The notes under the pieces are model-generated. The model did no database searches and had not been told where the DNA came from. It saw only the letters and a list, made by a program, of their open reading frames with translations. Positions 5,656-57,376 of a stretch of DNA of 64,000 bases are shown piece after piece. The stretch's first letter is position 1, and every line of letters begins with the position of its first letter. The translations under genes were made by a program, and so were the position numbers. Source of the stretch: Acidimicrobiia bacterium (GTDB taxonomy: Bacteria > Actinomycetota > Acidimicrobiia > Acidimicrobiales > Aldehydirespiratoraceae); assembly GCA_022820805.1 (NCBI GenBank), contig JAJEEV010000013.1, forward strand, positions 16,967-80,966. Reading direction: 5' to 3'.

Positions 5656-6855
5656 ATGAGACGCCCGCTGGAAGGACTCCGGGTGATCGACCTGGGATCC
5701 CGGGTCTCGGCCCCGTTCTGCGCCGGGATACTGGGCGAGCAGGGCGCCGAGATCATCAAGATCGAGGAACCGATCCGGGGCGACCGGCTGCGCGAGCTGG
5801 GTCCCTACGCCCACGACGACGCCGGGCAGCGGTACTCGCTGTACTGGTCGGTGGAGGGCCGGGGCCGCAAGTCGGTGACGCTCGACCTGCGCCAACCGCA
5901 GGGCCAGGAGATCCTCCGCTCCCTGGCCGGCGCCAGCGATGTGCTGTGCGAGAGCTTCCGGCCGGGCACCCTCGAACGCTGGAACATCGACCCGTCCCGC
6001 CTCTCCCCGCACCTGGTGACGGCCCGCTTCAGCGTGTTCGGCCAGGACGGCCCCAAGTCGTTGCGGCCCGGCCTCAACGGCAACGCCATGGCCTTCAGCG
6101 GGCTCATGCACCTCACCGGCTATCCCGATCGGCCTCCGGCACGGCCCGGAGTCAACGTCGCCGGCTACCTGACCGGCCTGTTCGCGGCCCAGGCCGTCAC
6201 CAGCCTGCTGTACGACCGCGACGCCCGGGGCGGAACCGGCGGGGTGATCGACGTGTACATGTACGGCTCCATCCTGCGCATCATGGAGTGGACCATCGCC
6301 GCGCACGACCGGCTGGGCATGGTCCGCGACCGCTCGGGCGCCAGCCTCGACATCGCCGCGCCGATCGGCAACTACCCCAGCCGTGACGGGCGCTACGTGT
6401 ACCTCGTCGGCGGCAGCCAGACTTTCTTCGAGCGACTGTGCCTTGCCATGGGACAGCCCGAGCTGGCCGCCGACGAGCGCTTCGCCGACGCCGCGGCCCG
6501 GGCCCGCAACCGGACCGAGATCAACGCGATCGTCGCCGAGTGGGTCGCCGGCCTGGACGCCGACGAGGCGGAGGCCCGCTGCGTGGCCTGCGACGTGCCC
6601 GCGGGCAAGATCTACGACGTCGCCGACCTGGCCGCCGACGAGCACGTGCAGGCCAGGGGTGACATCTGCACCGTCGAGGACCCGGTCGTCGGACCGGTCC
6701 GCCAGCAGGCGCCCTTCCCCCGCCTGCTCGGCGAGACCCCTCCCGCTCCTGCGGGCGCGCCCCGCCTGGGCGAGCACACCGACGAGGTCCTCTCGGGCGT
6801 GCTGGGCCTGTCGGGCACCGAGCTGGCCGCCCTCAGGTCCGACGGCGTCATCTGA
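5656..6855 (+). CDS. family III CoA-transferase (CaiB/BaiF), copy 2
   Basis: Collinear paralog of 2607..3809, roughly two-thirds identical by eye: LRVIDLGSRVSAPFCAGILGEQGAEIIKIE, APRLGEHTDEVL. Confidence 0.9.
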   Translation: MRRPLEGLRVIDLGSRVSAPFCAGILGEQGAEIIKIEEPIRGDRLRELGPYAHDDAGQRYSLYWSVEGRGRKSVTLDLRQPQGQEILRSLAGASDVLCESFRPGTLERWNIDPSRLSPHLVTARFSVFGQDGPKSLRPGLNGNAMAFSGLMHLTGYPDRPPARPGVNVAGYLTGLFAAQAVTSLLYDRDARGGTGGVIDVYMYGSILRIMEWTIAAHDRLGMVRDRSGASLDIAAPIGNYPSRDGRYVYLVGGSQTFFERLCLAMGQPELAADERFADAAARARNRTEINAIVAEWVAGLDADEAEARCVACDVPAGKIYDVADLAADEHVQARGDICTVEDPVVGPVRQQAPFPRLLGETPPAPAGAPRLGEHTDEVLSGVLGLSGTELAALRSDGVI

Positions 6856-8345: not shown

Positions 8346-9317
8346 TTAGGGGGCGGCTGCTATTACTGTCCAGTCGAGGATCTTTTCGGGGTCTTTGGGG
8401 CGGTGGGCGAAGGCCTCTACTTGGACCGCGAAGACCCGGCCTGTTGCGGCTGGGGCGGTGTCTCGGAGGGTGTGGCGGAAGGAGACTTGGTCTCCTTCGA
8501 AGGCGGGGGCGGTGTGGTCGCACGAGTGCCAACCGACGACGGTGGCCATTCCGGGCAGGACTCTTGACAAGGATGCTCCGGCCAGGCCGACGATGTGGCC
8601 GCCGTACAGCAGGCGCTGGGGGTAGGAGGACTCGGCCGCGTCGCGGTGGATGAGGGCCAGGTTGTTGGTGAGACGCACTAGCGCCAGTGCGTTGTCGACG
8701 ACGTCGCGGGTTGGGTCGGTGATGGTGTCGCCCGGCTCCCAGGCGGTTCCGGGACCTAGGGGGCCGAAGTCCCAGCTCTCGGGGACCAGCGCCGCGTAGG
8801 AGGGGAGATCCAGTGGGGCGGCCGTTCCTAGGCTGTCGGAGTGGCCGGGCTGATCGCTGGTTGCCTGGGGGAGGAGGGGGGCCCGCTGGTAGGTGATGGC
8901 CGGTTCGCCGTCGGCGGTGGTGACGATGTCGACGAGCACCTTGCCGCGGTGGGGCCGGCCCGGCCGGGGACGGCTGTCGGCGAGGGCGGTGACGGTGACG
9001 GTGGTGGCAAGGCGTTGCCCGATGAGCACGGGCTTGAGCAGCCTCAGGTCGCGGTAGAAGAGGTTGGCGATCGCCCGGCGGGTCAGGGTGGTGCTGTGCC
9101 CGATGGACAGGTGCAGCGCCAGCGCGGGGCTGGCCAGACGGCCGGGGCGGCCGGTGACGGCCGCGCACACCTCGGGGTCCATCACCATCGGCAGCCGCTC
9201 GCCCATCATCGACTGGTAGAGCGCGGCCATTCCCTCGTCGACCACCACCGACGGCTGGCGGGGCAGCACCTGGCCGACGCTTAGATCCTCGTAGTAGGGG
9301 CCGTCGAGCGGGATCAC
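8346..9317 (-). CDS. double hot-dog MaoC-like acyl dehydratase / enoyl-CoA hydratase
   Basis: 323 aa with two hot-dog-like halves; the C-terminal half has YGGHIVGLAG...GDQVSF. GTG start. Confidence 0.7.
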   Translation of the reverse strand: MIPLDGPYYEDLSVGQVLPRQPSVVVDEGMAALYQSMMGERLPMVMDPEVCAAVTGRPGRLASPALALHLSIGHSTTLTRRAIANLFYRDLRLLKPVLIGQRLATTVTVTALADSRPRPGRPHRGKVLVDIVTTADGEPAITYQRAPLLPQATSDQPGHSDSLGTAAPLDLPSYAALVPESWDFGPLGPGTAWEPGDTITDPTRDVVDNALALVRLTNNLALIHRDAAESSYPQRLLYGGHIVGLAGASLSRVLPGMATVVGWHSCDHTAPAFEGDQVSFRHTLRDTAPAATGRVFAVQVEAFAHRPKDPEKILDWTVIAAAP

Positions 9318-9344
9318 GGCACGCAGGCTACGACCCGCCGGAGG

Positions 9345-10280
9345 TCATAGCCGCTTCGAGAGAATGGCCGCGCCGTCGGCAGTGACGTGGACCACATCGC
9401 GGCGGTCGCCGTCGGAGACGCTGAGGACCATGCCGGCCTCAAGCTGCTCGCCGAGACCGATCTGGGGGCCGATGACGGGTTGCTCGAAACCCATGCCGAG
9501 GCCCCGAACCAGCCAGTCGGGGGAGGTCGCGGCGGTGGATAGGTCGTTATGGGATGCGTCGGCACGGCAGGCCTGGGTCAGGGCGGCGGAACCGGCGCGG
9601 CGGCTGTCGACGAACAGGCCGCCCACTCCCCCCTCGTACAGGTCGCGGATGACCCCCACGTCCACGGCAAGCCCGCCGTCGCGGCGCTCAGCCTGCACAC
9701 CTGACGACGGGACGGTGACGCCCCCGGCGGCCAGTGCCGCGATGGCGGCTGCGGCCGGGTCGGCGCCGTCTCGGGCCGCGACCGCGGCGTCCACGCCGGC
9801 GGCGGCTGCGGCGCAGGCGCCGGCGATGGCCTCGATCTCGGCTGGGAGTTTGTGGCGGCGGACGCCGGCCATCAGGTTGTCGGCCGCCACGACCTCGGCC
9901 CGGGGGGCGAAATGGGATGCGGCTCGCTGGAACGACGGTGTCAGCTCGTCCACACCGATCAGGCGAGATTCGGCGAGACCGTCGATGGCGGCCATGGACT
10001 CGGCCATGATCCGCGGATTCCAGGTGAGCGGGTAGAGGTCGTCGAAGCTCATCGGGGGCTCGATGCCGTCGTCCCAGCTCGACAGGGCGTGGACCCGCCC
10101 GGTGGCTCCCACCACGATGCAGCCCGCGCCGAAGGGCCGGGTGCCCGCGGTCCACAGCCGCCGCATCCCGCAGGCGTAGCCGGTGTTGTCCTGGCGCCCC
10201 AGCACCAGCACGTCGAGGCCGGCCGCAGCCATGGCACCCAGCACCCGGTCCCGACGGGCCAGCACGAGATCGTCGCTCAT
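9345..10280 (-). CDS. M24 (creatinase/prolidase) fold protein, degenerate metal site
   Basis: Start is the internal ATG at 10280 (MSDDLVLARRDRVLGAMAAAGLDVLVL), overlapping the upstream stop as ATGA. The pita-bread domain is recognisable but H and E ligands appear substituted (VRGLGMGFEQP, MVLSVSDG). Confidence 0.7.
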   Translation of the reverse strand: MSDDLVLARRDRVLGAMAAAGLDVLVLGRQDNTGYACGMRRLWTAGTRPFGAGCIVVGATGRVHALSSWDDGIEPPMSFDDLYPLTWNPRIMAESMAAIDGLAESRLIGVDELTPSFQRAASHFAPRAEVVAADNLMAGVRRHKLPAEIEAIAGACAAAAAGVDAAVAARDGADPAAAAIAALAAGGVTVPSSGVQAERRDGGLAVDVGVIRDLYEGGVGGLFVDSRRAGSAALTQACRADASHNDLSTAATSPDWLVRGLGMGFEQPVIGPQIGLGEQLEAGMVLSVSDGDRRDVVHVTADGAAILSKRL

Positions 10281-30062: not shown

Positions 30063-30434
30063 TCAGTACAGCGGGATCTCCTCGTTGGGGATCAGGCGCT
30101 CCCCCTTGGGGTCCACGAGTAGGCGGAGGCCCTCCAGGGCGTAGGCGCCGAGCAAGATGGGAGCCCCGTCCTCGTTGAAGGAGACCAACGTGGGTGCTCT
30201 GTTGCCGTCGATGGCGATGAACGCCGGACCGAGCTCGACGTCGACGATCTGCCCGTCCGCCAGCCGCATCCGGCATTCCTGTTCCGGCTCGATCCCCAGC
30301 TCACTCAGCAGCCGGGCCGGCATGGCGCTGTAGAAGGCGCCAGTGTCGACCGTCGCCTCGACTACTGCTGTTCGTTGGCCGTCAAGACTGGAGATCGTCA
30401 CCGGGCATGTGAACGTGCTCATATCAGATGCCAA
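30063..30434 (-). CDS. stand-alone retropepsin-like (clan AA) aspartic protease
   Basis: 123 aa with a single VDTGA active-site motif, no signal peptide and no TM segment. AT-rich leader with AGAGGAG RBS. Confidence 0.7.
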   Translation of the reverse strand: MASDMSTFTCPVTISSLDGQRTAVVEATVDTGAFYSAMPARLLSELGIEPEQECRMRLADGQIVDVELGPAFIAIDGNRAPTLVSFNEDGAPILLGAYALEGLRLLVDPKGERLIPNEEIPLY

Positions 30435-36158: not shown

Positions 36159-37253
36159 TCAGTCTCGGGGTTTGGAGGCCACGTAGGCGAATTGGAAGCC
36201 GATGGGCTCGATCAGGCGCAGCGCCTCGAAGCCGGCGTCGCGCAGCCAACCGGTGGCCTCGGCGGTGGTGACGCCGAAGCCGTTTACGGTGCTGGCCATC
36301 ATGGTCATGCCCATGAGCACGGCGTGGGGGTTGGTCTTGTGGTTCGGGCCGACGAAGTAGTCGGCCATCACCACCCGACCCTCGGGGCGCAGGGCCCCGT
36401 AGGCCCTCTCGACCAGGTGGCGGGCGCCGTCGGGGCCCTCGGTGCGGCAGATGTGGCCGAGCACCACGATGTCGTAGGCCCCTTCTTCGAGCGGGATGGT
36501 GTGGAAGTCTCCGGGCCGGAACTCGCAGCGGTCGTCCACGCCGTGCTCGGCCGTCTTGCGCCGGGCGACGTCGATCACGCCGTCGAGGTCGTTGACGGTG
36601 GCCCGGCCGCCGGCGCAGGCCTCCAACATCGCGATCGACCAGGGCGCCCCGCCCGCGCCGAGGTCGAGGATCCGGGGCGCGTCCAGGGCGCTGTAGCGCA
36701 TCTTGAAGTCGGCGCGGCCGGCGCATCGCCACATGGTGGTGAACGTCCCCTCCACCAGGGGCACGTAGAACGCGGCCGGGTCGTCGTCGATGGGGGTGGC
36801 GGGCCGGCCCGAGCGCACGGTGGCGGCCAGGCGGGTCCAGTTCTCGTGCGGGCCGGGCGCCACCGGTATCAGCCCGGCCATCGAGGCCGCACCGTCGACG
36901 AGCAGGTAGCGGCGGGCGGCGTCGTTGAGCCTGAAGTCGTCCACCACCCGGTCGAGCAGGCCGAGGGCCACCACCGAGTCCAGCAGCGACTCGGTGTGCA
37001 GTTCAGGCAGGCCCAGCCGCCGGGCCAGCTCGCCGGCCGTCATCCCCGAGTCGGCCGGGGCCTCGTTCAGGCTCTCGAACACCCCGAGCTCCAGGGCGGC
37101 CAGCAGCACGTGGTAGCGGCCCAGCCCCTCGATCACCGCCCACACCGGAGCGGCCGCGGGCGGCTTGTAGTCCGTGAACGGCCGCCCCACGTGGGCCATC
37201 GTGTGGGTCTTCTTCAACTCCGGATAAGGAGCATCCCGAGAACTATCAGCCAT
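36159..37253 (-). CDS. O-methyltransferase-type SAM-dependent methyltransferase with N-terminal dimerisation/wHTH domain
   Basis: ILDLGAGGAPWS motif I; N-terminal GLGRYHVLLAALELGVFESL. Start could be 37253 or 37199. Confidence 0.8.
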   Translation of the reverse strand: MADSSRDAPYPELKKTHTMAHVGRPFTDYKPPAAAPVWAVIEGLGRYHVLLAALELGVFESLNEAPADSGMTAGELARRLGLPELHTESLLDSVVALGLLDRVVDDFRLNDAARRYLLVDGAASMAGLIPVAPGPHENWTRLAATVRSGRPATPIDDDPAAFYVPLVEGTFTTMWRCAGRADFKMRYSALDAPRILDLGAGGAPWSIAMLEACAGGRATVNDLDGVIDVARRKTAEHGVDDRCEFRPGDFHTIPLEEGAYDIVVLGHICRTEGPDGARHLVERAYGALRPEGRVVMADYFVGPNHKTNPHAVLMGMTMMASTVNGFGVTTAEATGWLRDAGFEALRLIEPIGFQFAYVASKPRD

Positions 37254-37337
37254 GGTCTCTGATGTTTGTAGTTTGCCATTTAACATTCACAATCAGTATG
37301 CTATTTCTCAAATAACAGATACAAGAGGCATGGCGTG

Positions 37338-38912
37338 ATGGTCGAATGGCAGCCACAACCCAGTGATTACCACAGGGTCTACACGGAACAGAATCCCTGG
37401 CAGCCGTCCGGCACCGTTCCGACAGTCCTGGCACCCGCCACCGAGCGGTTCCTGGCACGCGTCCTGTGGAAGCGCCTCATCAACAATGAGCCCCGACGGC
37501 ACCAAGTGATCCTGGGGCCCCGCAGAGTCGGCAAGACGACCGTGCTGTACCAGACCGTGCGACACCTGATCAACAACGGCATCGCCCCCAGCCGTATCTG
37601 GTGGCTCCGTCTCGACCACCCCCTGCTACTCGAAGCTGCCCTCGGAGACCTCGTGAGAGAGGTGCTGCGCGGCTCACAGGCCGATGAGCAGGACCCTCTG
37701 TTCCTGATGCTCGACGAGATCGTCTACGCCGAGGATTGGGATCTGTGGCTCAAGACGTTCTATGACGAGGGTTGGCCGGTGCGGATCGCGGCCACCTCCA
37801 GCAGCACGACGGCACTTAGAAGGCAACGTCGCGAGAGCGGCGTGGGCCGCTGGGAGGAGCATCACCTGCTGCCATGCCGTCTCGATGAGTACTTCCACTT
37901 GGTCGGTAGTCCACCAGAGGTGACGGCGCATCACACACTCGCCTCCACCCTCGCCGCCCTTGCGGCACGGAACCATGCCGACCCCAGTCTGGAAGGGCTG
38001 CGCACGGTCCTCATGTTCGAAGGGGGCTTTCCAGAGCTGCTCTTCAGACCCATCGTGGCATCATCGAAGGACGGCACAGAGAACCTCGAGCATCACGTCC
38101 TCGAGTCGCAGAGGGTGCTCCGTAGCGATGCGGTGGAGCGGGCCGTCTACAAAGACATCCCCCAAGCAGCGGGCGTCGACAACCCCATGATGCTGGAGCG
38201 GCTGTTGTACGTGCTCGCCGGCCAGGTGACCGGCCTCCTTTCGCCAACCAACATCGGCCAGCAACTGGGCATCAAGCAGCCCACGTTCGACCGGTACCTG
38301 ACATACCTGGAGCAGGCCTACCTCGTGTTCACGCTGACCAACTACTCGGGCTCCGAGTCAGCGGTCCAGCGGCGGGGCCGCAAGCTGTATTTTGTGGACA
38401 GCGCGGTGCGCAACGCGGCGCTGCACCGCGGCCTCGCCCCCCTCAATGATCCTGTTGAGCAGGGCACCTTGCTGGAGAATCTTGTAGCCGCGACAGTCCA
38501 CACCCTCGCCGCCCACGCCGGCGTACGCCTCCACCACTGGCGAGACGGCAACGATGAGGTCGACCTCATCTACGACGAGCCCCAGCAGCCGCTCGCCTTC
38601 GAGATTGCATCGTCGCCGAACCACAGCCTTACCGGCCTTGAGGCTCTTGTCGAACGCAACTACCGCTTCCATGGCCATAGCTATCTCGTGGCTCCTCAGG
38701 CCGCGGTAATCCACCCCGCAGACGACCGCAGAGGCATCGGCATGCTGCCCCTCGACACCTTCCTGCTCGCAGTAGGTGCCCAAGCCCACCAGGCCATGCT
38801 CACCCGCCTCGGCGTGTCCGCCAGCGTTGTCGGCACGACACCAGAGGCCGAACGGGCCGAACCTGAGATGCCCGAGCATGGATTGCTCGGCCGTTCTGCG
38901 GATCTTGCGTAG
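37338..38912 (+). CDS. AAA (AAA_14) ATPase with DUF4143 C-terminal domain
   Basis: Walker A GPRRVGKTT and Walker B LFLMLDEI. C-terminal EVDLIYD...FEIASS block. ATG at 37338 lies 9 nt after AAGAGG (the ORF-track GTG is at 37335). Confidence 0.8.
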   Translation: MVEWQPQPSDYHRVYTEQNPWQPSGTVPTVLAPATERFLARVLWKRLINNEPRRHQVILGPRRVGKTTVLYQTVRHLINNGIAPSRIWWLRLDHPLLLEAALGDLVREVLRGSQADEQDPLFLMLDEIVYAEDWDLWLKTFYDEGWPVRIAATSSSTTALRRQRRESGVGRWEEHHLLPCRLDEYFHLVGSPPEVTAHHTLASTLAALAARNHADPSLEGLRTVLMFEGGFPELLFRPIVASSKDGTENLEHHVLESQRVLRSDAVERAVYKDIPQAAGVDNPMMLERLLYVLAGQVTGLLSPTNIGQQLGIKQPTFDRYLTYLEQAYLVFTLTNYSGSESAVQRRGRKLYFVDSAVRNAALHRGLAPLNDPVEQGTLLENLVAATVHTLAAHAGVRLHHWRDGNDEVDLIYDEPQQPLAFEIASSPNHSLTGLEALVERNYRFHGHSYLVAPQAAVIHPADDRRGIGMLPLDTFLLAVGAQAHQAMLTRLGVSASVVGTTPEAERAEPEMPEHGLLGRSADLA

Positions 38913-38969
38913 CGGTGAGTCGACGGGGGGCGCGAGCTGGACGAACAACGCGAACTGGTTGAGCGACTG

Positions 38970-38987
38970 CCGCTGGATCACCAGCGG
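38970..38987. terminator. GC-rich stem-loop between convergent ATPase and fic genes
   Basis: CCGCTGG-ATCA-CCAGCGG, nested inside a longer-range inverted repeat CGGTGAGT (38913) / ACTCACCG (38991). Confidence 0.4.
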
Positions 38988-39010
38988 TGTACTCACCGGC
39001 GCGTCGCCGC

Positions 39011-40204
39011 TCAGATTCCGGTGGGTTGGATGCCTGGCAGTCGTTGCTGCGCGACCGTCACGTAGGGATCGTCCCGCGACCGTGGAGGGCGGCCGGAGCG
39101 CACCGCGCTCCAGAGTTCTCGCAGTTCTCGAGAACCGTGGTATATGCGGCCCCGTCCCGCACCGGTCGCGTCAAGCACACCGGCATCGACGAGGGCTTTG
39201 AGATCTCGGCTGGCGGTGAGATCAGAGATCGGATCGCCGTCGGTGACCTCGACGAGCCGGATGTAGATCGAACGGCGAATCCTCCGGCCCCGGGCGGCGT
39301 CGGCGAGCGCACCAATGGCCCGCGCGGGCAGCTTCCGCCGGTCGACGAGTTGGGAGATTCCGTCATACAGCGACTCGGTTTCGTGGACGCGCCGCTGCAG
39401 TGTCCACGCTTGGCGATAGTGGGCGCGCAGCATGAAGCGAATCCAAGGCCGCGCTGAGTTCCGCGGCTGCCAACTGCCCTGGCCCACTTCGCTGAGCACT
39501 GCGTAGTAGTCACCGGTGTTGCGCCCCAGGTACTCCTCGACAGACGAGAACACCGGCGAGACTATGCCCTCGGCGGATAGCACCATGGTCTGCAGTGCTC
39601 GGGCCATGCGCCCATTGCCGTCGCGAAACGGGTGAATCATCGTCAAGTTGAGGTGGGCCATTGCGGCGCGGAACATGACCGGTGCAGAGTCACCTTCCTC
39701 CAGTGATTCGACGAGCGCGCCCATCAGCTCGTCAACGAGTTCTGCGCCGGGCGCCTCGTAGACGCGCGTTCCGGTCTCGTCCTCGACCCAGACATCGCCG
39801 GTGCGGTAGTGGCCGGGCCGGACTCGCAGTTCATGCTTGGTCATCATGAAATGGAGCGACTTGAGCAGCGACTCGTCCACCTTGACGCCGTCTTGAGCGA
39901 ACGAGAGCACGTAGGTCATGGCGTCGCGGTAGCCGGTGAGCGCCAAGCGCGTCTGTTCGGCGGTGTCGAGCGGTTCCTCGTCCTCGATGGTGTCAAGCAC
40001 GTCATCGAGCGAGGCTCGGTACCCCTCAATCCAATTGGAGCCGCGCACAGCACGCGCGAAACTCATGCGCCGCAAGTGACCGGCCCACCGGCGCGGCCGA
40101 TCCACTACGTAGAGCGAGAGCTCGCGGCGGAGCCGCTCGATCTCCCCGATGACCATCAAATCGGTATCGTCCGGCTCGGGCGTGACGAAGATGGCGGCGC
40201 ACAT
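39011..40204 (-). CDS. Fic family protein (class II, N-terminal inhibitory helix) with C-terminal wHTH
   Basis: Canonical HPFRDGNGRMARAL. SNWIEG matches the [ST]xxxE[GN] inhibitory motif. C-terminal DLKALVDAGVLDATGAGRGRIY. Confidence 0.9.
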   Translation of the reverse strand: MCAAIFVTPEPDDTDLMVIGEIERLRRELSLYVVDRPRRWAGHLRRMSFARAVRGSNWIEGYRASLDDVLDTIEDEEPLDTAEQTRLALTGYRDAMTYVLSFAQDGVKVDESLLKSLHFMMTKHELRVRPGHYRTGDVWVEDETGTRVYEAPGAELVDELMGALVESLEEGDSAPVMFRAAMAHLNLTMIHPFRDGNGRMARALQTMVLSAEGIVSPVFSSVEEYLGRNTGDYYAVLSEVGQGSWQPRNSARPWIRFMLRAHYRQAWTLQRRVHETESLYDGISQLVDRRKLPARAIGALADAARGRRIRRSIYIRLVEVTDGDPISDLTASRDLKALVDAGVLDATGAGRGRIYHGSRELRELWSAVRSGRPPRSRDDPYVTVAQQRLPGIQPTGI

Positions 40205-40343
40205 AGCGTTTAACTTATCAAACTATGATGCTATGTAGATATCAATCCATCACTGCTGTTAGTGATCAGCGGAAGTCTGGGTACACGAACCGGGCGCGAC
40301 TGCTCAGAGCAGCTGCGCTGGGTCCGGGGTACCGCCTGCTCTC

Positions 40344-40718
40344 CTACCAGGGTCTCAGGATTTCGACGCGGTCGCTGGTGACCTCGTCGGAGGCAGTGAA
40401 CAGGGGGAGTTCCAGTTGCTCGGCGAGGACTAGTGCCGACCAGGAGTCGAGCGCATCAACGGCATCCAGGCCGGCACGGACGAGCGTCTCCGCCACCATG
40501 GCCCGAACCGGGAACCACTCGTCCACAACCGCCAGCACCAACCCCGTCTCCACCTGGATTATCTCGGCCCTGCCCTCGTGGCGGGCGGCCAGGAAACGCC
40601 CGACTGTGACCGAGGACCAGTCGAGAGCCAGCAACTCTGCGTCCGGTAGGACCTCGCCCTCCAAGGCCCCCGCCGCGGCCAGGACTCCGCCCGCGTCGCA
40701 GACGACGCTATGGGGCAT
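40344..40718 (-). CDS. PIN-domain (VapC-like) toxin, divergent
   Basis: 124 aa with acidic residues in PIN-like positions (VVCDAG, DALDSWSALVLAEQL, FTASDE). Overlaps the upstream RHH gene by 11 nt. Confidence 0.6.
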   Translation of the reverse strand: MPHSVVCDAGGVLAAAGALEGEVLPDAELLALDWSSVTVGRFLAARHEGRAEIIQVETGLVLAVVDEWFPVRAMVAETLVRAGLDAVDALDSWSALVLAEQLELPLFTASDEVTSDRVEILRPW

Positions 40719-40920
40719 CGGTGCCTCGCAGCCGCTGGCGGATGGCGTCGAACTCTGCCCGGCTCATGGGCTGTCGACCCTGGGCGAACTCTGCAGGCGA
40801 ACGCCGCGACGCGATGCGCGTCAGCTCCTGACGCAAGTACTGCTGCACAGAAAGCCCCGCCGCAGCCGCCTGCTCCTTGAGCCGCCTCGCGACATCGTCA
40901 TCAAGGTCCTTAATGTTCAT
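40708..40920 (-). CDS. ribbon-helix-helix (FitA/VapB-like) antitoxin
   Basis: Internal ATG at 40920. MNIKDLDDDVARRLKEQAAAAGLSVQQYLRQEL, similar to the antitoxin at 56964..57206. Confidence 0.65.
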   Translation of the reverse strand: MNIKDLDDDVARRLKEQAAAAGLSVQQYLRQELTRIASRRSPAEFAQGRQPMSRAEFDAIRQRLRGTDAP

Positions 40921-41092
40921 GTCCACCCCACTGTTATACCAAACTGGTAGAAGCTCCCAGCTGTTCGCGCCGCTCATGATATCTAATGTTGTTATGATTA
41001 GAGATATTTCATGCAGCTACCTGCTGGACCAGCGAACCGTGAATGCGAGGAACTGATGGAGGGCACGTCGACGCCGTGAGAGAATCCGGGGC

Positions 41093-42328
41093 ATGACTGA
41101 AGTGCAGACGAATCCGGAGCGGTTGTGGTCGCGGTTGATGGACATGGCCGAGGTTGGGGCCACCCCCGCGGGGGGCTCGAACCGGCAGGCGCTGTCCGAT
41201 GAAGACAAGGCGGGACGGGACCTGTTCGTCGGCTGGGTCGAGCAGGCGGGCTGCTCGATCGAGCTCGACGGCGTGGGCAACATGTTCGCCCGCCGTCCCG
41301 GCACCGACCCCGGCGCCCCGCCGGTCGTGCTGGGCAGCCACCTCGACACCCAGCCCACCGGCGGGCGCTTCGACGGCGTGTACGGGGTGCTCGGCGGCCT
41401 CGAAGTGGTCGAGTCGCTCAACGACCACGGGGTGCAGACCCGCGCCCCGGTGGAGGTGGCGGTCTGGACCAACGAGGAGGGCTCCCGCTTCCCGGTGTCG
41501 ATGATGGGCTCCGCGGTATGGGCCGGGGTCCTCCCGCTGGACGAGGTTCGGGCGGTCACCGACCGCTCCGGCACCACCGTGGGCGACGAACTCGACCGTC
41601 TGGGCCTGGCCGGAACCGTCCCCTTCGGCAAGCCGCTGGGCGCCTACCTGGAACTGCACATCGAGCAGGGGCCGATCCTCGAGGCCAGTGGCTCGTCGAT
41701 CGGGGTCGTCACCGGGGTGCAGGGGATCCGCTGGTTCAGGGTGACCATCGAGGGCTTCCCCGCCCACGCCGGCACCACACCCATGGACCGCCGCCACGAC
41801 CCGGCCCGGTCGCTGGCCGACGCCCTGGACGGCATCTACGACATGGCAGCCGCCCACGCCCCGCAGATACGGCTAACCCCGGCGATGTTCGCCTCCGAGC
41901 CGGTGTCCTCCAACACGGTCCCGGCCCACATCACCTTCACGATCGACATGCGCCACCCCGACGCCGGCGTGCTGGAGCGCCTGGACCGGTCCCTGCGCAG
42001 CCTGGTGGCTGAGGCCGCCGAGGCCCACGGCTGCGGGCACCGGGTGGAGGTCATAAACGACTGCGCCCCGGTGGTGTTCGATCCGAGGTGCGTCGACGCG
42101 GTGGAGTCAGCCGCGCAGCGCTGCGGCCTCCGCTACGAGCGCATCGGCTCCGGCGCCGGCCACGACGCCTGCCATGTGGCTCTCAAAGCCCCCGCCGGGA
42201 TGATCTTCGTTCCCTGTGAGGATGGGCTGTCGCACAACGAGGCCGAGTCGATCGAGCCGGACGTCGCCGGCCGGGGCGCCGAGGTCCTGCTGCACGCCGC
42301 CCTGGATCTGGCCGGCACCGCGTCCTGA
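41093..42328 (+). CDS. M20 family amidase (N-carbamoyl-amino-acid / allantoate amidohydrolase type)
   Basis: GSHLDTQPTGGRFDGVYGVLGGLEV...WTNEEGSRF...ELHIEQGP. Confidence 0.9.
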   Translation: MTEVQTNPERLWSRLMDMAEVGATPAGGSNRQALSDEDKAGRDLFVGWVEQAGCSIELDGVGNMFARRPGTDPGAPPVVLGSHLDTQPTGGRFDGVYGVLGGLEVVESLNDHGVQTRAPVEVAVWTNEEGSRFPVSMMGSAVWAGVLPLDEVRAVTDRSGTTVGDELDRLGLAGTVPFGKPLGAYLELHIEQGPILEASGSSIGVVTGVQGIRWFRVTIEGFPAHAGTTPMDRRHDPARSLADALDGIYDMAAAHAPQIRLTPAMFASEPVSSNTVPAHITFTIDMRHPDAGVLERLDRSLRSLVAEAAEAHGCGHRVEVINDCAPVVFDPRCVDAVESAAQRCGLRYERIGSGAGHDACHVALKAPAGMIFVPCEDGLSHNEAESIEPDVAGRGAEVLLHAALDLAGTAS

Positions 42329-56574: not shown

Positions 56575-56967
56575 TCAGTGCAGAAGTTCGACGTCGCAAC
56601 GGATGCCGGGAGCGTGTGCCAGTCGCTGGTCGTGAGTCAGCAACGTCGCACCTGTGGTCTCGGCCAGCGCCACGTAGGCCGCGTCGTACACCGTGAGATT
56701 GTCCCGCAGCTCCCAACATCGCTCCAGCAGCAGTTCGTGGGCGAAGCGGACAATCGGAAGGACAGCCAACTGTCGCAACCCGCTCCTGCCCGCCGTCGCC
56801 GAGATCTCGCCCCGGCGAACGAGGGCCCGCAGGGCCGAAGCGACCTCAAGATCGAGAAGGTGGGGAGCCAGCGACGCATCCCGGGCCATGCGGCGCACGG
56901 TCTGAAGGCTGCGGTCGCTGGAACCGGCCACAGCCTCGGTGACCGCGCTGGCGTCGACGACGATCAA
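56575..56967 (-). CDS. vapC: PIN-domain toxin VapC
   Basis: TTG start at 56967 overlaps the antitoxin stop (TTGA). IVVDASAV, LEVASAL, YDAAYVALAE, LTHDQRL. Confidence 0.8.
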   Translation of the reverse strand: MIVVDASAVTEAVAGSSDRSLQTVRRMARDASLAPHLLDLEVASALRALVRRGEISATAGRSGLRQLAVLPIVRFAHELLLERCWELRDNLTVYDAAYVALAETTGATLLTHDQRLAHAPGIRCDVELLH

Positions 56968-57206
56968 CGCGACTCTCGATCGGCCCGGATGACCTCCACG
57001 ATTGCGGCCGGGTCCACGTGCGTCTCGCCGTGGGCGAGGACCTCGGCTCGCTTGCGGGCCAGCAGTTCCTCCGCGCTGGCGACAGCCGCCTGCCTGCACA
57101 CCGAGTCGAGCATGTACTGCTGGAGCGACTGGCCCGCGGCCGCGGCCCGGACCCTCAGCACCCGATGGACATCATCGGGCACGTGCTTGATCTGGATAGT
57201 GGCCAT
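56964..57206 (-). CDS. vapB: ribbon-helix-helix antitoxin VapB (FitA-like)
   Basis: Internal ATG at 57206. MATIQIKHVPDDVHRVLRVRAAAAGQSLQQYMLD. Confidence 0.75.
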   Translation of the reverse strand: MATIQIKHVPDDVHRVLRVRAAAAGQSLQQYMLDSVCRQAAVASAEELLARKRAEVLAHGETHVDPAAIVEVIRADRESR

Positions 57207-57216
57207 GGTGTCAGAG

Positions 57217-57260
57217 TAGCGCCAAAGTAGCGTTGTTAGCGCTGAATTAGCGTCTAGCGC
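57217..57260. promoter_or_regulatory. array of five TAGCG(C/T) hexamers upstream of vapB (candidate operator)
   Basis: Hexamers start at 57217, 57228, 57237, 57248 and 57255, beginning 11 nt upstream of the vapB ATG. Confidence 0.45.
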
Positions 57261-57376
57261 CGGGTCCAACTGGAGAAGGGGACTCTGGGGTCGCCTTCAG
57301 GGCCTGGTCGCGACGGCGACGTGATGGAATGCCATGCTTGGCTCGTGCTAGGCAACGACGCGATGGCGTGGGGGAG

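Follow-up and report, generated by a model that had tools for sequence, protein, structure and literature searches.

Three probably independent cassettes of known kinds, and not a new ATPase-Fic system, in a strain-variable hotspot of sponge-type Acidimicrobiales

We have analysed here a 3.8-kb block of four genes (positions 37254-41092) in a 64,000-nucleotide stretch of contig JAJEEV010000013.1 from an Acidimicrobiia bacterium (assembly GCA_022820805.1), the whole 64-kb stretch being referred to below as the window. The block encodes an ATPase with AAA_14 and DUF4143 domains (37335-38912, + strand), a class II Fic AMPylase of the SoFic type (39011-40204, - strand), a 124-residue divergent PIN-like putative toxin (40344-40718, - strand) and a FitA-like ribbon-helix-helix (RHH) antitoxin (40708-40926, - strand). 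An earlier note on this DNA had placed the four genes correctly and had grouped them into a single candidate defence or abortive-infection module. Our comparison of related genomes indicates, with a probability of about 0.8, that the block instead consists of three independent cassettes of known kinds that occupy a strain-variable hotspot between core genes, and that there is no new ATPase-Fic system. The island is a further example of element types already known, an ordinary defence/toxin-antitoxin islet. What looked like a new ATPase plus Fic abortive-infection system turns out to be a toxin-antitoxin pair and two (candidate) defence genes of the single-gene type, both among the commonest, that happen to occupy one hotspot, and the value of this result is chiefly corrective.

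The independence of the cassettes is seen most directly in the gene content of the equivalent interval in relatives. These were collected by an amidase-based scan of one genome per GTDB species, together with loci from a metagenome scan, and the window proteins were placed on the related methyltransferase-amidase loci (numbered L003 and so on). The amidase scan returned metagenome-assembled genomes (MAGs) of Acidimicrobiales, many of them named 'Ca. Aldehydirespirator', with amidases 75-93% identical to that of the window, and all of the comparison genomes are MAGs or metagenome contigs. The interval is bounded on the left by an O-methyltransferase gene (Dimerisation and Methyltransf_2 domains by Pfam; 36159-37253, - strand), which has a syntenic counterpart, with a product 89-93% identical, in L003-L009, L011 and L013, and on the right by a gene for an M20-family amidase of the allantoate amidohydrolase/carbamoylase family (41093-42328, + strand; NCBIfam NF006769, 543 bits), 82-93% identical in relatives L003-L013. 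Between these flanks the 13 related loci show at least 10 different contents. The ATPase and Fic occur together in L003 (81% and 97% identical to the window proteins, respectively), which also retains a 19-residue RHH remnant. An ATPase gene without Fic is found in four genomes at this site, among them L083 (78% identity; with a truncated PIN-like gene of 31 codons and a truncated RHH gene of 34), L122 (75%; with a PIN-like gene, a Phd/PIN pair and further genes) and L018 (85%; with a PemK/MazF-like toxin, a small open reading frame (ORF) and a beta-lactamase-like gene), and L007 holds ATPase fragments only. The PIN-like and RHH genes are present without the ATPase in L008, where they accompany a beta-lactamase-like gene, and are the sole content of L009. 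L004 has a canonical PIN and Phd pair plus an orphan RHH 94% identical to that of the window, L011 a beta-lactamase-like gene only, and L013 and L016 a canonical PIN and Phd pair with other genes, reaching up to 7.9 kb. An apparently empty site, of the kind that the earlier note had suggested looking for, exists in L005 and L006, in which 66 bp is all that separates methyltransferase from amidase. According to boundary alignments, all states of the hotspot share only about 25 nt on the methyltransferase side and, at the other end, about 45 nt that precede the amidase start. With syntenic flanks and varying cargo, the view of the block as a strain-variable, compositionally foreign insert of conflict-type genes between conserved metabolic genes is borne out.

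Many of these states are products of decay. In L007 an internal deletion fuses the ATPase upstream region to mid-gene sequence (9306-9984), remnants of the same upstream region and of the 5' end of the gene persist in L013 (2140-2270) and L008 (8188-8236), and the truncated genes of L083 (9633-9815) and L003 (9438-9494) are likewise pieces of cassettes. Since 5' ATPase remnants are found in genomes that have no such gene, and since the L007 copy is internally deleted, we conclude that deletion is frequent at the hotspot. With deletions common here, an ancestral origin of the 66-bp state in L005 and L006 could not be demonstrated, and this state may be secondary. Defence islands and variable hotspots between core genes are a general concept, and the present locus resembles them in its conserved flanks, in its distinct strain-variable toxin-antitoxin and defence cargo, and in having no dedicated mobility gene. 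It differs in being very small (0-8 kb), in belonging to uncultivated sponge-type Acidimicrobiales, and in the abundance of in-place decay affecting ATPase, PIN-like and RHH genes. A bounded hotspot with about 10 cargo states plus an empty one could serve as a natural catalogue of the small conflict cassettes of an uncultivated lineage.

The second line of evidence concerns the linkage of the ATPase to Fic. The two genes are adjacent only in the window and in L003, both at the same hotspot. A metagenome scan with the ATPase yielded 31 loci, and in the 27 of these with homologues at 53-65% identity Fic was absent by tblastn, by a hidden Markov model built from 60 Fic homologues and by a six-frame search for HxFx[DE]GNGR. 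Among independent ATPase loci that extend 1.5 kb or more past the gene, only about 1 in 22 has Fic, the one being this hotspot. Pfam annotation of 80 ORFs neighbouring ATPase homologues gave a heterogeneous collection with no conserved partner, comprising PRiA4_ORF3/DUF6933 (four times), a second DUF4143 gene (twice), HTH regulators, a BsuBI/PstI restriction enzyme and an ISL3 transposase. PRiA4_ORF3 is the most frequent neighbour family, adjoining the ATPase in 4 of about 18 distant loci, 3 of them with DUF6933 (for example L084 1558-2688). In a complete MAG (L123 6001-11789), a 64% identical ATPase homologue lies by a gene for a 1152-residue HEPN_Swt1/DUF499 protein, an NYN gene and an IS3-family transposase, a setting that looks like a defence island.

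The converse comparison gives the same answer. Six Fic loci with proteins 72-92% identical to that of the window fall into four other settings, none with an adjacent AAA_14/DUF4143 gene. Copies at 92%, 90% and 86% identity lie between adh_short and YajQ genes, another at 86% beside a molybdopterin oxidoreductase gene, and one at 78% between genes for a luciferase-like monooxygenase (Bac_luciferase) and an APH kinase. The last, at 72%, adjoins a cation-efflux gene, and its locus also has a shorter AAA_14/DUF4143 gene 3 kb off, past three transport or NUDIX genes. The adh_short-Fic-YajQ locus is itself another small variable site, and in L114 (7390-10920), as compared with L115 and L124, Fic is followed directly by a gene for a 950-residue type IIG restriction-modification protein (N6_Mtase/Eco57I) and a 225-residue ORF. 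The one relative with both genes also points to separate histories, because window and L003 flanking proteins are 91-95% identical, the ATPases 81% and the Fic proteins 97%. Cassette junctions or direct repeats around Fic were sought in an alignment of the window, L003, L018, L083 and L122 at the 3' end of the ATPase gene; past the stop the sequences are unrelated, for which reason a junction could not be defined.

These data bear directly on the idea that the ATPase and Fic form a two-gene defence system in which the ATPase senses infection and licenses the Fic toxin. The adjacency in the window and L003, a sequence motif common to the two upstream regions (see below) and the loss of a catalytic lysine from the ATPase clade, which might then need an external effector, are what such a system would have in its favour. 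Against this, Fic accompanies the ATPase at a single site, the Fic loci elsewhere do without the ATPase, the identities to L003 diverge, the genes are convergent and so not co-transcribed, and both families have been described as single-gene systems (PMC12988326, PMC12249575). The co-occurrence data largely refute the two-gene idea, which we judge extremely improbable. With it falls the proposal that the four genes make up one module, as the ATPase and Fic each occur without the other; beyond the L003 exception at the same hotspot, the two are essentially never neighbours elsewhere. It is correct, as the earlier note had it, that the pairing is not a named defence system, but PADLOC has a named single-gene entry that either of the two matches by itself (PDC-S01, 7e-43, and SoFic, 2.8e-49).

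The shared motif, TTTAAC-N12-KATGCTAT, is found exactly twice in the window, with 0 occurrences expected from 100 shuffles. The first copy precedes the ATPase (37279-37304, + strand, where it reads TTTAAC-N12-TATGCTAT) and the other abuts the Fic start (40209-40234, + strand, opposite to that of Fic). Each copy accompanies its own gene in relatives and is absent from distant ATPase homologues. A functional link between ATPase and Fic by way of this motif was set aside in view of the opposite orientations of the copies, their separate travel and their absence from the distant homologues. The motif may represent a shared promoter/operator or a coincidence of AT-rich promoters. The 98-nt GC-rich spacer that separates the two convergent genes (38913-39010) has no special structure. 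The convergent arrangement and its length had been described correctly, but the nested inverted repeats reported within it were rejected: the arms are 8-9 nt, and the folding of the spacer is no better than that of shuffled sequence (z = -0.7 and -0.2).

The composition of the block is distinct from that of its surroundings. Its GC content is 0.635 compared with 0.704 elsewhere in the window, which makes it the GC minimum among all 3.8-kb windows (mean 0.699, standard deviation 0.017), and its tetranucleotide usage departs from the window average more than that of any other part, with a maximum at 37001-41000 (distance 0.025 as against about 0.012 elsewhere). The GC content at third codon positions (GC3) is 0.784 for Fic, 0.787 for the ATPase, 0.832 for the PIN-like gene and 0.76 for the RHH gene, compared with a mean of 0.909 (standard deviation 0.041) for the 47 other coding-like ORFs of the window and with 0.92-0.97 for the four flanking genes (0.93 for the methyltransferase, 0.92 for the amidase); the ATPase and Fic have the lowest GC3 among the approximately 50 coding-like ORFs of the window. 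The intergenic borders have GC contents of 0.37 on the left (37254-37334) and 0.53 on the right (40921-41092). The drop in composition between the methyltransferase and amidase starts, the AT-rich stretches at the two borders and the weaker GC3 bias of the enclosed genes, all of which had been noticed by eye, are therefore confirmed by computation.

Such an anomaly could be taken to mean that the whole 3.8-kb block was acquired horizontally as an island in a single event, and the uniform depression of GC and GC3 over the four genes and the sharp borders against core genes fit this. However, relatives hold nearly every sub-combination of its parts, and remnants besides, and there are other loci at which one or another of the three cassettes, each in its turn, stands by itself. 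Mobility features were also sought. ARAGORN found no tRNA genes in the whole window, and no integrase or transposase domains turned up in the Pfam annotation of the neighbouring genes, which are metabolic (amidohydrolase, O-methyltransferase, M20 amidase, zinc-binding dehydrogenase and glyoxalases), so the earlier statement that integrase, transposase and tRNA are missing at the borders stands. Neither boundary alignments nor a repeat search revealed direct repeats at either border. When viral contigs were scanned for Fic and the ATPase, all matches were short and spurious and there were no close relatives, and hence no evidence of phage carriage. Single-event acquisition is, on this balance, highly unlikely. 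Given that no mobility gene, tRNA gene, direct repeat or viral relative was found, the cargo probably turns over by way of local deletions and of homologous recombination in the conserved flanks.

The first cassette is the ATPase gene, which starts at a GTG (37335) or ATG (37338) codon. Its product carries AAA_14 (9e-24) and then DUF4143 (4e-28) in one chain, as PDC-S01 proteins do, and it is matched over its full length by five PADLOC PDC-S01 models (best 7e-43). It further resembles PDC-S01 in being a single gene with no conserved partner (about 20 loci) and with variable neighbours that include defence-type genes. PDC-S01 has been described as a single-gene candidate system, an ATPase fused to a PD-(D/E)XK domain, that ranks fourth in frequency among PADLOC calls and has yet to be validated (PMC12988326), and DUF4143/COG1373 has been assigned to the PD-(D/E)XK superfamily (PMC3424549). 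We aligned the window protein with 115 close homologues (116 sequences, at least 61% identity, mostly from sponge-type Acidimicrobiia). The Walker A (GPRRVGKT) and Walker B (FLMLDE) motifs are invariant in this set, as are E381, D410 and E423 of the DUF4143 domain. The position of the 'ExK' lysine of PD-(D/E)xK enzymes, residue 425, is occupied by alanine in 77 sequences, glycine in 37 and serine in 2 (residues 421-425 of the window protein are AFEIA, encoded at 38595-38609), whereas the distant DUF4143 proteins of L017, L106, L111 and L112 retain E-x-K as EVK or ECK. S427 and H430 are also invariant in the homologues and might compensate for the absent lysine. This large PDC-S01 subclade without the canonical lysine, a by-product of the analysis, is relevant to efforts to validate PDC-S01.

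The AlphaFold model of the ATPase (confidence score pLDDT 74) resembles AAA+/STAND ATPases, including Apaf-1, Orc1/Cdc6 and RFC, in Foldseek comparisons. These whole-chain matches were to generic ATPases of this kind only and were uninformative on the C-terminal domain, and a sequence search of the PDB with the ATPase gave no match. The C-terminal domain (residues 373-492, pLDDT about 90) is nonetheless predicted to have the alpha-beta-beta-beta-alpha-beta order typical of PD-(D/E)XK nucleases. Besides the missing lysine, two features set the window protein apart from PDC-S01. The first is the linker that joins the ATPase and DUF4143 domains (residues 176-250, 37860-38084), which is rich in indels and poorly conserved: its mean column identity is 0.52-0.57 compared with 0.80-0.87 in the flanking sequence, and its roughly 80 residues take up 146 alignment columns. 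The window and L018 have a common form of linker, and that of L003 is quite different. The second is a tail of 28 unconserved codons, added by read-through (38826-38912) where the usual stop has been lost from the window copy (GCC TGA to GCC AGC), and predicted to be disordered (pLDDT 31-38). The AT-rich region upstream of the gene (37254-37334, GC 0.37) is part of the ATPase cassette, since it is conserved in the ATPase-bearing loci L003, L018, L083 and L122 and has no more than about its first 25 nt in common with the empty site; it contains a promoter-like site (TTGCCA-18-TATGCT, 37273-37302).

A variant of the two-gene idea would keep the ATPase at the centre of the hotspot. The lysine-less protein would be a dedicated sensor that anchors the site and works with whichever toxin lies directly downstream, one sensor with a swappable effector; the toxins would then be Fic (window, L003), a MazF-like protein (L018), PIN-like proteins (L122, L083) and the giant HEPN/DUF499 protein (L123). 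We consider such an arrangement very improbable, and no better can be said of its two corollaries, namely that linker 176-250 is a specificity region, an assignment in which we would place very little trust, and that the shared upstream motif is a sign of co-regulation, which seems equally remote.

The second cassette is the Fic gene. Its product is recognised by Pfam Fic (1.3e-14) and, over residues 44-357, by the PADLOC SoFic model (2.8e-49), and its best sequence relatives in the PDB are the SoFic structures 9TCL and 3EQX (5e-15), the alignment covering residues 139-355 and so reaching the C-terminal domain. The chain contains an inhibitory motif, SNWIEG (residues 56-61), that fits (S/T)xxxE(G/N), and a catalytic motif, HPFRDGNGRMAR (residues 191-202), that fits HxFx(D/E)GNGRxxR. 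A Fic protein with the inhibitory motif N-terminal in the same chain is by definition of class II (PMC12249575), and the class II assignment made in the earlier note is sustained by the presence of both motifs in one chain. SoFic combines the same inhibitory motif with HPFx(D/E)GNGRxxR in one chain, and the window protein is also like SoFic in occurring as a stand-alone gene. It differs in its scores against two stricter profiles, the NCBIfam SoFic equivalog NF046030 (75.8 bits against a cut-off of 550) and Pfam SoFic-like_C (20.4 bits, under the cut-off of 27); from the first of these we take it to be a distant member of the SoFic family and not an orthologue. The 98-nt spacer after Fic is, in addition, too short for the 47-residue AS1-type antitoxin ORF of E. 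coli (PMC12249575), and no conserved small gene is apparent downstream of other Fic loci, although no systematic search was made.

Directly upstream of Fic is an AT-rich element of about 50 nt, a probable promoter/operator (40205-40260, - strand). This sequence, TGATnnnTTGATATCTAnATAGCATCATAGTTTGATAAGTTnAAC, abuts the start codon in four other aligned loci as well (L003 9297-9350; L114, L115 and L116 at about 5950-6000). The conservation of an element immediately before the start codon suggests that the 5' leader of Fic is very short or missing and that its promoter/operator is portable.

The third cassette is the RHH and PIN-like pair. The RHH gene, with 72 codons from a GTG at 40926 or 70 from an ATG at 40920, matches Pfam FitA-like_RHH (5.3e-9) and lies upstream of the PIN-like gene, the start of which it overlaps by 11 nt. 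The 124-residue protein itself had no match in Pfam (E <= 10), NCBIfam, PADLOC or, by phmmer, the PDB sequences. The Pfam PIN and PIN_3 profiles fail to recognise it, and it belongs to a family of 364 proteins that are all labelled hypothetical. With profile-based identification unsuccessful, structure prediction alone was of help. Of the five AlphaFold models made from 33 family members, one reached a pLDDT of 93 (the other four 33-59), and the top 21 PDB matches to this best model in Foldseek were all PIN/VapC proteins (TM scores 0.53-0.68, best E 4.7e-4 for 2fe1; 1v8o at TM 0.66-0.68), among them PAE0151, PAE2754, M. tuberculosis VapC5 and VapC20 and, further down the list, FitB. Acidic residues D8, E57, D88 and D91 are invariant in the family and D111 is nearly so. 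A PIN assignment is on these predictions plausible at the level of the fold only. Of the PIN toxin with its RHH antitoxin originally proposed, the antitoxin is upheld by its profile match; the PIN reading of the toxin is supported by a predicted structure only and by no profile.

In its organisation the pair follows FitAB/VapBC systems: the antitoxin gene comes first, there is an 11-nt overlap, and the upstream region has an inverted repeat. The difference is that the toxin is invisible to Pfam, NCBIfam and PADLOC. The two genes stay together and move among unrelated loci: a 72-residue RHH gene with a 124-residue partner and the identical 11-nt overlap is also present in L127-L129, the neighbours being PGI and glyoxalase genes in one genome and ABC transporter and POR oxidoreductase genes in another. 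Together with its solitary occurrence in the hotspot of L009, this shows the pair to be autonomous. The AT-rich RHH upstream region (40927-41092), of which about the last 45 nt also occur in the empty site, contains a candidate operator, the inverted repeat ATATCTAAT-N9-ATTAGAGAT (40979-41005). Just 3' of the PIN-like stop is an imperfect GC-rich hairpin (40286-40326, - strand; 20-nt arms, 75% complementary) that is possibly the terminator of the RHH/PIN-like operon. Inverted repeat and hairpin would fit an autoregulated two-gene operon. The unannotated, divergent PIN-like family, always paired with a FitA-like RHH, is another by-product of the analysis.

Taken as three independent cassettes, the block suggests the following picture. 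The methyltransferase-amidase interval is a gene-flux hotspot of the sponge-type Acidimicrobiales clade that includes 'Ca. Aldehydirespirator' and relatives. The cassettes that occupy it, three in the window genome, are self-contained, have separate upstream regions and have probably been gained and lost independently. The PDC-S01-type protein might act as an ATP-driven sensor, as a nucleic-acid-targeting protein, or as both. By analogy with published SoFic, the Fic protein would be silenced by its own N-terminal inhibitory helix and, once released, would AMPylate a host target, leading to a growth stop or aborted infection; SoFic has been described as a class II Fic single-protein defence with a toxic AMPylase activity (PMC12249575), and EF-Tu has been reported as its target (bioRxiv 10.64898/2026.07.09.737422). 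In the third cassette the RHH antitoxin would repress the operon and neutralise the divergent PIN-fold protein, a presumed RNase.

A different view of the same cassettes dispenses with phage defence. They would be selfish addiction or regulatory genes, their low GC reflecting foreign origin or relaxed selection; Fic could then be a reversible regulatory AMPylase and the ATPase could have a non-immune role. PDC-S01 is a candidate by 'guilt-by-embedding' (PMC12988326), the ATPase clade is missing the catalytic lysine, SoFic also de-AMPylates EF-Tu constitutively (bioRxiv 10.64898/2026.07.09.737422), and the frequent gene decay at the hotspot fits dispensable selfish DNA. On the other hand, SoFic-type proteins have been reported to protect against phage (PMC12249575), the neighbours of homologues (restriction-modification, HEPN/DUF499, NYN and toxin-antitoxin genes) are typical of defence islands, and the strong conservation of the ATPase motifs over 116 homologues argues for a selected activity. 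We regard the view without phage defence as unlikely overall, though it deserves to be taken seriously, and the details proposed for Fic and the ATPase as similarly doubtful.

Several points tell against our preferred reading of three independent cassettes of known kinds. Because the motif-III lysine is replaced by alanine, glycine or serine, nuclease activity appears doubtful in the lysine-less ATPase clade. PDC-S01 has no experimental validation, and a defence function can only be suggested for the cassettes. The PIN assignment depends on one confident AlphaFold model in five, with Foldseek E values near 1e-3. The 66-bp 'empty' sites of L005 and L006 may be secondary deletions, and, there being no isolate genomes in the comparison set, assembly errors may affect it.

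Two further places in the window attracted our attention. A second VapBC-type pair (56575-57269, - strand) lies in another local GC dip, between genes for a probable oxygenase and a xanthine/uracil permease; it consists of a FitA-like RHH gene (56964-57269; 5.5e-9, GC3 0.79) followed by an ORF with a typical VapC signature (LIVVDASAV...THDQRLA). At 30063-30434 (- strand), a 123-residue ORF with a GC3 of 0.83, in a local GC dip of 0.63, has a weak match to retropepsin-like aspartyl proteases (gag-asp_proteas, 5e-6, just under the cut-off).

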